Below are positions 36,575-36,841 of a DNA stretch of 64,000 bases, piece after piece. This DNA comes from Escherichia coli (GTDB lineage: Bacteria; Pseudomonadota; Gammaproteobacteria; Enterobacterales; Enterobacteriaceae): assembly GCF_965641715.1 (NCBI RefSeq), contig NZ_OZ282453.1; one strand, written 5' to 3'. Made by a program: the position numbers and the translations under genes. Numbering within the stretch: the stretch's first letter is position 1; each line of letters opens with the position of its first letter. The notes beneath the pieces are model-generated. The model ran no database searches. It was not told where the DNA came from and saw nothing but the letters and a program-made list of their open reading frames with translations.

Positions 36575-36578
<4 letters not shown>

Positions 36579-36841
36579 AAGAGTTTTTATTTTTATTTCA
36601 CTCCACGGTCGGCGTCATACAAACCCGCAAGGCGTTGCAGGCAGCGGGCATGACTTTTCGCGTCAGCGATATTCCCCGTGATTTACGCGGCGGCTGCGGG
36701 TTATGCATTTGGCTGACCTGTCCCCCCGGCGAGGAAATACAATGGGTGATCCCTGGGCAGACCGAAGCGATATATTGCCAGCAGGGCAGCGACTGGCAGT
36801 GCGTGGTGCATTACGATGCAGAAGCGTCAACCAGGCAATAA
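36575..36841 (+). CDS. Small cysteine-containing protein, DUF3343-like, translationally coupled to yjiL
   Basis: 88-aa ORF whose ATG overlaps the yjiL stop (ATGA); contains a GGCGLC motif; family assignment from memory. Confidence 0.5.

Follow-up and report, generated by a model that had tools for sequence, protein, structure and literature searches.

ytiA, a DUF3343 gene overlapping yjiL in Escherichia coli, as the third member of the conserved unit yjiM-yjiL-ytiA

In the 64,000-nucleotide (nt) stretch of Escherichia coli chromosomal DNA that was analysed here (contig NZ_OZ282453.1; hereafter the window), a short open reading frame (ORF) overlaps the end of yjiL on the same strand. This ORF, at 36575..36841, is almost certainly ytiA, the gene for a small protein of the DUF3343 family. 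It stands third in the conserved unit yjiM-yjiL-ytiA and, as read from the overlap, is predicted to be translationally coupled to the preceding gene. As a sequence feature ytiA is ordinary, and the interest that remains is functional rather than structural: the gene stands at the meeting point of two subjects, the cellular role of the double-cubane [8Fe-9S] reductases and the delivery of selenium to SelD.

The ytiA gene and its alleles

The gene and the elements within and just before it are the following.

36575..36841, + strand: ytiA, encoding a small DUF3343 (PF11823) protein; PF11823 match, K-12 annotation b4715, alignments and AlphaFold2 model
36575..36578, + strand: ATGA shared by the ytiA start and the yjiL stop; sequence inspection
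36563..36566, + strand: GAGG, Shine-Dalgarno-like element for ytiA, within the yjiL 3' end; sequence inspection
36695..36697, + strand: Cys41 codon of ytiA, invariant in both family alignments; proposed chalcogen-carrying residue
36722..36727, + strand: C6 homopolymer in ytiA; loss of one C gives a frameshifted pseudogene in a few K-12-type assemblies

The first-pass annotation of this DNA had described an ORF of 88 amino acids (aa) that begins with an ATGA at the yjiL stop and carries a GGCGLC motif, and the sequence agrees with it on both points. The ytiA ATG occupies 36575-36577 and the yjiL TGA 36576-36578, while the motif is found at residues 39-44 (G39-G40-C41-G42-L43-C44; nt 36689-36706). 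The GAGG element lies 8 nt upstream of the start, and purine-rich elements occur at the equivalent position in ytiA orthologues. An intrinsic terminator or a promoter was not detected in the interval that separates yjiL from the end of ytiA.

The ORF listing of the region contains many spurious frames of at least 50 aa on both strands, and therefore the length of the ytiA ORF alone is no proof of a gene. With so many chance ORFs of 50-120 aa in a GC-rich region, it could be imagined that this one is another untranslated frame, but the sequence evidence excludes this and makes it as good as impossible. The bit score of YtiA against PF11823 (DUF3343, Se_S_carrier) is 49.2, where the cutoff is 25 (E=3.6e-13), and its residues 4-59 align to model positions 2-57 of 69, so that the suspected membership in DUF3343 is borne out by the hidden Markov model (HMM) search that had been suggested as a check; no NCBIfam model matches the protein. 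Among 5.8 billion proteins searched, 133 homologues were found; PF11823 is present in almost all of these, and the named ones belong to Escherichia, Citrobacter, Klebsiella, Raoultella, Kosakonia, Atlantibacter and Phytobacter. Nineteen enterobacterial homologues align with the reading frame intact and with 20 invariant columns. Among orthologues the median pairwise ratio of nonsynonymous to synonymous substitution rates (dN/dS) is 0.30, and 0.24 for residues 1-48, which indicates purifying selection that is stronger in the N-terminal half, where the cysteine is located. Furthermore, the confidently modelled fold (predicted local distance difference test, pLDDT, 86.5) and the presence of the gene in the reference annotation also argue against a chance ORF. 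The PF11823 match, the frame conserved in 19 homologues and a dN/dS of about 0.2-0.3 thus identify ytiA as a real gene.

The first-pass annotation had supposed that the gene was missed, and in this respect it does not hold: ytiA is already known. In MG1655 it is annotated as b4715 (YP_009518833.1, 'uncharacterized protein YtiA'), 258 nt long, intact and with the 4-nt yjiL overlap, and sampled RefSeq records of E. coli label it "ytiA: DUF3343 domain-containing protein" or 'putative Se/S carrier protein'; the family was described in 2015. A 751-nt probe over ytiA matched 5385 of 5426 complete E. coli genomes. Literature searches for the E. coli gene (ytiA, b4715, and ytiA with the names of its neighbours) found nothing, the matches to 'ytiA' concerning the Bacillus L31 paralogue, and no experimental report was found in the literature for any DUF3343 protein or for E. 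coli ytiA.

The allele in the window encodes 88 aa and the K-12 form 85 aa. Both share the position and the 4-nt overlap with yjiL, and in residues 1-61 their sequences are the same or almost the same, whereas the C-terminal tail reads HYDAEASTRQ here, HY.. in K-12 and HYGISPR in Nissle. The likeness to the K-12 and Nissle alleles decays over the last ~28 codons (36758-36841) and is gone just past the stop. Between ytiA and the yjiK homologue follows a stretch of low GC content (36842-39650; 30-41%, versus 50-58% in yjiML), which is missing from K-12 and Nissle, where yjiK begins 64 nt after ytiA; a probe reaching into this insertion was covered for at least 80% in just 635 of 5426 E. coli genomes. 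The low-GC stretch contains a gene (37154-39406, +) for a 750-aa pentapeptide-repeat protein (PF00805, E=3e-33), the C-terminus of which consists of successive degenerate octapeptide repeats of the 'NSTDKQA' type. Since the decay lies inside the 3' end of ytiA, the haplotype boundary of the insertion crosses the gene end and alters the tail; the tail differs from that of K-12 because the ytiA 3' end is on a divergent haplotype linked to the low-GC insertion.

Another type of variation affects the C6 homopolymer. In the record NZ_CP043211 (O16:H48, the K-12 serotype) ytiA is flagged as a frameshifted pseudogene, and alignment shows a change from C6 to C5. Exact matches among 5354 genomes number 66 for the C5 form and at least 3016 for the C6 form; C600 and O16:H48 PG20180050 are examples of C5, while MG1655 and most strains have C6. 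The idea that K-12 has no intact ytiA was rejected, as MG1655 is intact and the C5 change occurs in only 66 of the 5354 genomes. The C5 calls are either real mutations of sub-lineages or homopolymer errors of assembly.

The conserved unit and the cysteines of YtiA

Two genes precede ytiA; the coordinates of yjiM follow the RefSeq start, transferred from locus L001 of the survey described below.

34650..35801, + strand: yjiM, double-cubane [8Fe-9S] cluster reductase component, 383 aa; NF040772, PF06050 HGD-D, 6ENO homology
35811..36578, + strand: yjiL, ATP-dependent activase (reductase) of YjiM, 255 aa; TIGR00241, PF01869, RefSeq

YjiM scores 531 bits against NF040772 ("double-cubane-cluster-containing anaerobic reductase"; cutoff 350) and is homologous to the Carboxydothermus double-cubane protein 6ENO (E=5.6e-75). 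YjiL scores 364 bits against TIGR00241 (acyl-CoA dehydratase activase; cutoff 125) and also matches PF01869. Of the earlier label of this pair as 2-hydroxyacyl-CoA dehydratase-like, the superfamily stands, but YjiM is now assigned to the double-cubane-cluster anaerobic reductases of NF040772. YjiM and YjiL are currently considered as an ATP-driven low-potential reductase. Jeoung and colleagues have classified YjiM as a class II double-cubane protein with YjiL as its partner (PMC7317905). Term searches of that paper and of the preprint of Haft on double-cubane proteins (bioRxiv 10.1101/2022.07.06.499078) found no mention of a third small protein, and neither is among the seven papers that a full-text search for 'DUF3343' returned.

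To place the unit among genomes, an alignment of YjiM was scanned against one genome per species, which yielded 80 loci, 19 gammaproteobacterial and 61 Firmicute-type, the ORFs of which were then searched with the DUF3343 HMM and with YjiL. The order yjiM-yjiL-DUF3343 is found in all 19 gammaproteobacterial loci, which come from Escherichia, Citrobacter, Klebsiella, Kosakonia, Trabulsiella, Cedecea, Superficieibacter, Hafnia, Morganella, Aeromonas and one unclassified proteobacterial metagenome-assembled genome. The YtiA orthologues are 78-102 aa long. At the junction of yjiL and the DUF3343 gene, 14 loci have a 4-nt overlap (ATGA or GTGA), four an overlap of 1 nt and one, in Hafnia, of 11 nt; an overlap of 1-4 nt is therefore kept in 18 of the 19. 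The same gene order occurs on two metagenomic contigs with unrelated flanks and a YtiA identity of 35-36%. Only in genera close to Escherichia is the unit flanked by yjiN and mdtM, which many loci lack, and hence the conserved unit consists of the three genes yjiM-yjiL-ytiA. The conservation of the frame and of the overlap, which had been named as a check, is thus found across yjiML loci, and the suggestion of a third member of the yjiM-yjiL module is confirmed.

Close enterobacterial loci could share ancestry, and the link of ytiA to yjiML is a comparative one; ytiA might therefore be a genuine gene without any functional tie to yjiML, their adjacency being nothing else than inherited gene order. 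This is very improbable, since the triad is kept from Escherichia to Aeromonas and Morganella despite changing flanks, recurs in the two further contexts on metagenomic contigs, and maintains its start/stop overlap down to about 35% YtiA identity. Moreover, the association is met again in Firmicutes with rearranged gene orders. With good confidence, YtiA can be regarded as a functional partner of YjiML.

The AlphaFold2 model of YtiA, built on the 19-sequence alignment, begins with a strand-helix-strand arrangement that leads into a loop (33-42); after this come a further strand, a short helix and a beta hairpin. Cys41 closes the loop just before the third strand, where the pLDDT dips, and in the model it would lie on an exposed loop. 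Sequence, profile and fold searches gave no solved relative, and generic ferredoxin-like domains were the best that the fold search matched. Among 1.84 billion cluster representatives, a profile search detected 118 relatives, and in 24 full-length family members, down to 19% identity, only F8, P34, C41 and Y67 are invariant. C41 is without exception in both the 19-sequence and the 24-sequence alignment, in the context P34-x6-C41-G42. The enterobacterial subgroup has the pattern C41-x2-C44-x4-C49, with C44 nearly invariant and C49 common. In orthologues of the same module from Aeromonas, Hafnia and Morganella, C44 is replaced, and Morganella also has no equivalent of C49. Such a pattern points to a single cysteine with a catalytic or carrier role and not to a metal-cluster site.

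The cysteines also bear on a role of YtiA as a small redox or electron-transfer partner, either ferredoxin-like with an Fe-S cluster or acting by thiol-disulfide exchange through C41, C44 and C49, and serving as electron donor to YjiL. The three-cysteine arrangement of the enterobacterial sequences and the predicted ferredoxin-like alpha/beta fold would suit this role, and an activase requires an electron donor (PMC7317905). However, with the losses just mentioned C41 alone is invariant, there is no match to a ferredoxin or thioredoxin family at E<=1, and family members adjoin transporters and desulfurases, not reductases; taken together, this role appears improbable. Among the classifications tried, that as a ferredoxin-type Fe-S protein was rejected because only C41, and not three or four cysteine ligands, is conserved. 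Membership of TusA/SirA (PF01206) was likewise discarded, with no PF01206 match at E<=1 and no conserved CPxP; the C49-P-P-G of YtiA is not a CPxP and is not conserved.

Sulfur and selenium genes around DUF3343 and YjiM

Distant members of the DUF3343 family are found in the company of sulfur and selenium genes. They adjoin TusA together with a class-V aminotransferase, a TusA/DsrE fusion, genes of the YedE/YeeE-type Sulf_transp family, which they overlap in some cases, Sulf_transp plus TusA, or YqeC together with molybdenum-cofactor genes and with activase and HGD-D fragments. In two loci the DUF3343 gene comes directly after a YedE/YeeE-type Sulf_transp gene, with an overlap of 14 nt in one (L012, 3932-5255) and a gap of 4 nt in the other (L014, 3926-5252). 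The proteins of these loci are the nearest relatives of YtiA that are not linked to a double-cubane protein (DCCP), at 27% identity, and it seems that other proteobacteria couple this small protein to a chalcogen transporter. In a further locus (L015, 5001-5879) the DUF3343 gene is part of a YqeC, molybdenum-cofactor and XdhC cluster and is followed by gene calls for an activase of only 111 aa and an HGD-D protein of only 78 aa, which may represent a decayed or misassembled double-cubane pair.

The YjiM proteins of the 61 Firmicute-type loci are 56-68% identical to E. coli YjiM. A DUF3343 gene lies within 5 kb of YjiM in seven of these loci, a count that stands with a rebuilt HMM; six of these DUF3343 hits were submitted to Pfam, and each of them passes PF11823. 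The neighbours were clustered and their representatives named with NCBIfam, giving the following frequencies among the 61 loci.

YedF (TIGR03527): 9/61
EF2568/SclA-type lyase (TIGR01977): 8/61
SelD (TIGR00476): 6/61
YqeB (TIGR03309): 4/61
YqeC (TIGR03172): 4/61

At least one of these five or DUF3343 is present in 14 loci. The counts of 7/61 and 14/61 would be above chance, judging from the few such genes that a genome contains.

The gene orders are varied. In Clostridium intestinale (L037) the order is XDH ... YjiM-YjiL-SelD-YedF-DUF3343-YqeC-MocA-YqeB, and in three other loci (L051, L053, L080) it is YqeC-YqeB-YedF-SelD-YjiM-YjiL-MocA. Elsewhere, YedF-lyase-DUF3343-YjiM-YjiL (L082) and DUF3343-lyase-YedF-YjiL-YjiM (L087, L093) are found. 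DUF3343 is also directly beside long-form NF040772 paralogues, as lyase-DCCP-DUF3343-activase (L071) and activase-DCCP-DUF3343 (L085).

The Clostridium orthologues of YjiM and YjiL (L037, 5001-10942; L051, L053 and L080, ~1200-7600) are located in same-strand operons with SelD, YedF, YqeB, YqeC, MocA-like and xanthine-dehydrogenase-like genes, and selenium-dependent molybdenum hydroxylases are matured by this set of genes. Eight Firmicute-type loci (L041, L043, L044, L047, L066, L077, L078, L086) have a C-S lyase of the PatB family (TIGR04350) next to yjiM, immediately upstream of the yjiM orthologue and, in the representative L047, on the opposite strand; six of the eight have no activase within 5 kb, which is present in L041 and L066. 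The PatB-type lyase thus marks another setting of yjiM that recurs among these loci.

Several of these associations have been noticed before. Lin et al. proposed DUF3343 as a selenium/sulfur trafficking chaperone with a conserved cysteine, and in their STRING table for Slackia its partners include an activase and an HGD subunit (PMC5322559). Kayrouz et al. listed yedF and duf3343 as two of the five top-ranking genes with an overlap to selD (10.1101/2022.04.13.486033). Haft found 955 of 970 NF040772 proteins in SelD-positive genomes and suggested the processing of a selenium compound or, as something formally possible, a cofactor bridged by selenium (10.1101/2022.07.06.499078). EF2568, also named SclA, has been characterised as a selenocysteine lyase (10.1101/2020.02.07.939272).

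Such neighbourhoods would also be compatible with YtiA as a maturation factor, which provides the ninth, bridging sulfide, or selenium in its place, for building or repairing the [8Fe-9S] cluster of YjiM and does not handle a substrate. In three gene orders DUF3343 is immediately beside NF040772 proteins, the selenium-bridged cofactor considered by Haft would link double-cubane proteins to SelD, and the chemistry of a single-cysteine carrier suits the donation of one atom. On the other hand, 54 of the 61 YjiM orthologues outside the Gammaproteobacteria manage without an adjacent DUF3343 gene, and many DUF3343 genes are found with YedE, TusA or desulfurases and with no double-cubane gene nearby. 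Maturation of the cluster is therefore an unlikely function, if less so than electron transfer.

A possible chalcogen carrier and its relation to known systems

The best-supported reading is that YtiA carries a persulfide or perselenide on Cys41 and works together with YjiM and YjiL, and we consider it somewhat probable; that Cys41 is a chalcogen carrier at all is, taken by itself, an evenly balanced proposition. The identity and family of the gene, the conservation of the module and of its overlap, the purifying selection and the recurring sulfur and selenium neighbourhoods are established here; we infer the chalcogen on Cys41, the contact with YjiM or YjiL, the direction of transfer, the reductive release and the choice between selenium and sulfur. 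YjiL would act as an ATP-hydrolysing activase that supplies low-potential electrons to the double-cubane [8Fe-9S] reductase YjiM. YtiA, an alpha/beta protein of about 85 aa, would be loaded at Cys41 with sulfur or selenium, as persulfide or perselenide, from a donor of the cysteine-desulfurase or selenocysteine-lyase type or from an uptake system of the YedE/YedF type. The loaded YtiA could then present the chalcogen atom to YjiM, which might release it reductively as sulfide or as selenide, the substrate of SelD, or process it otherwise.

Three observations weigh against a carrier of this kind. DUF3343 is not adjacent in the 54 Firmicute-type YjiM loci that form the majority, the E. coli locus has no neighbouring selenium gene, and in loci L001-L097 no DUF3343 gene was found in which an in-frame TGA takes the place of the cysteine codon, as it would in a selenoprotein form.

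That selenium rather than sulfur is the atom carried can be put forward only tentatively. Still more doubtful is the complete scheme in which YtiA, YjiM and YjiL together perform an ATP-driven mobilisation of selenium, or possibly sulfur, with the perselenide on Cys41 being reduced by the double-cubane cluster to selenide for SelD. If true, selenium mobilisation would provide the first physiological substrate for double-cubane proteins, supply the missing link in the delivery of selenide to SelD, and account for the fact that the genomes with NF040772 proteins are almost universally SelD-positive. As the triad is present in all gammaproteobacterial loci, and Firmicute YjiM occurs in operons with SelD, YedF, SclA and YqeB/C, the E. 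coli genes ytiA and yjiML offer a tractable genetic entry to a role in chalcogen relay.

Three known systems invite comparison. The first is the DCCP and DCCP-R pair of Carboxydothermus hydrogenoformans (6ENO, 7YYL), of which YjiM is the DCCP homologue and YjiL the matching activase. The described system has two components, whereas the unit in the window adds ytiA as a third gene, and unlike the Carboxydothermus DCCP, YjiM has no N-terminal channel-closing extension, in accordance with its class II type.

The second is the PF11823 family as described by Lin et al. in 2015 (PMC5322559). YtiA scores above the HMM cutoff, fits the size of 80-100 aa and has the invariant cysteine in P-x-x-h-x-x-x-C-G; furthermore, its position near an activase and an HGD-D family gene resembles that of DUF3343 in the STRING table for Slackia. 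Differences are that, unlike in other DUF3343 settings, SelD, YedF, a selenocysteine lyase or YedE is not adjacent in E. coli, and that the enterobacterial YtiA subgroup has the extra cysteines C44 and C49, which are not shared by the wider family. The family name 'Se/S carrier' is itself a prediction.

The third is the TusA, YedF and YeeD group (PF01206), the members of which are, like YtiA, small proteins with a single catalytic cysteine, although in YtiA the role of this cysteine is a predicted one. Carriers of the TusA type occur within DUF3343 neighbourhoods, in the orders TusA-DUF3343-desulfurase and YedE-TusA-DUF3343. The predicted topology of YtiA differs from that of the TusA type, and DUF3343 is found together with TusA instead of replacing it.
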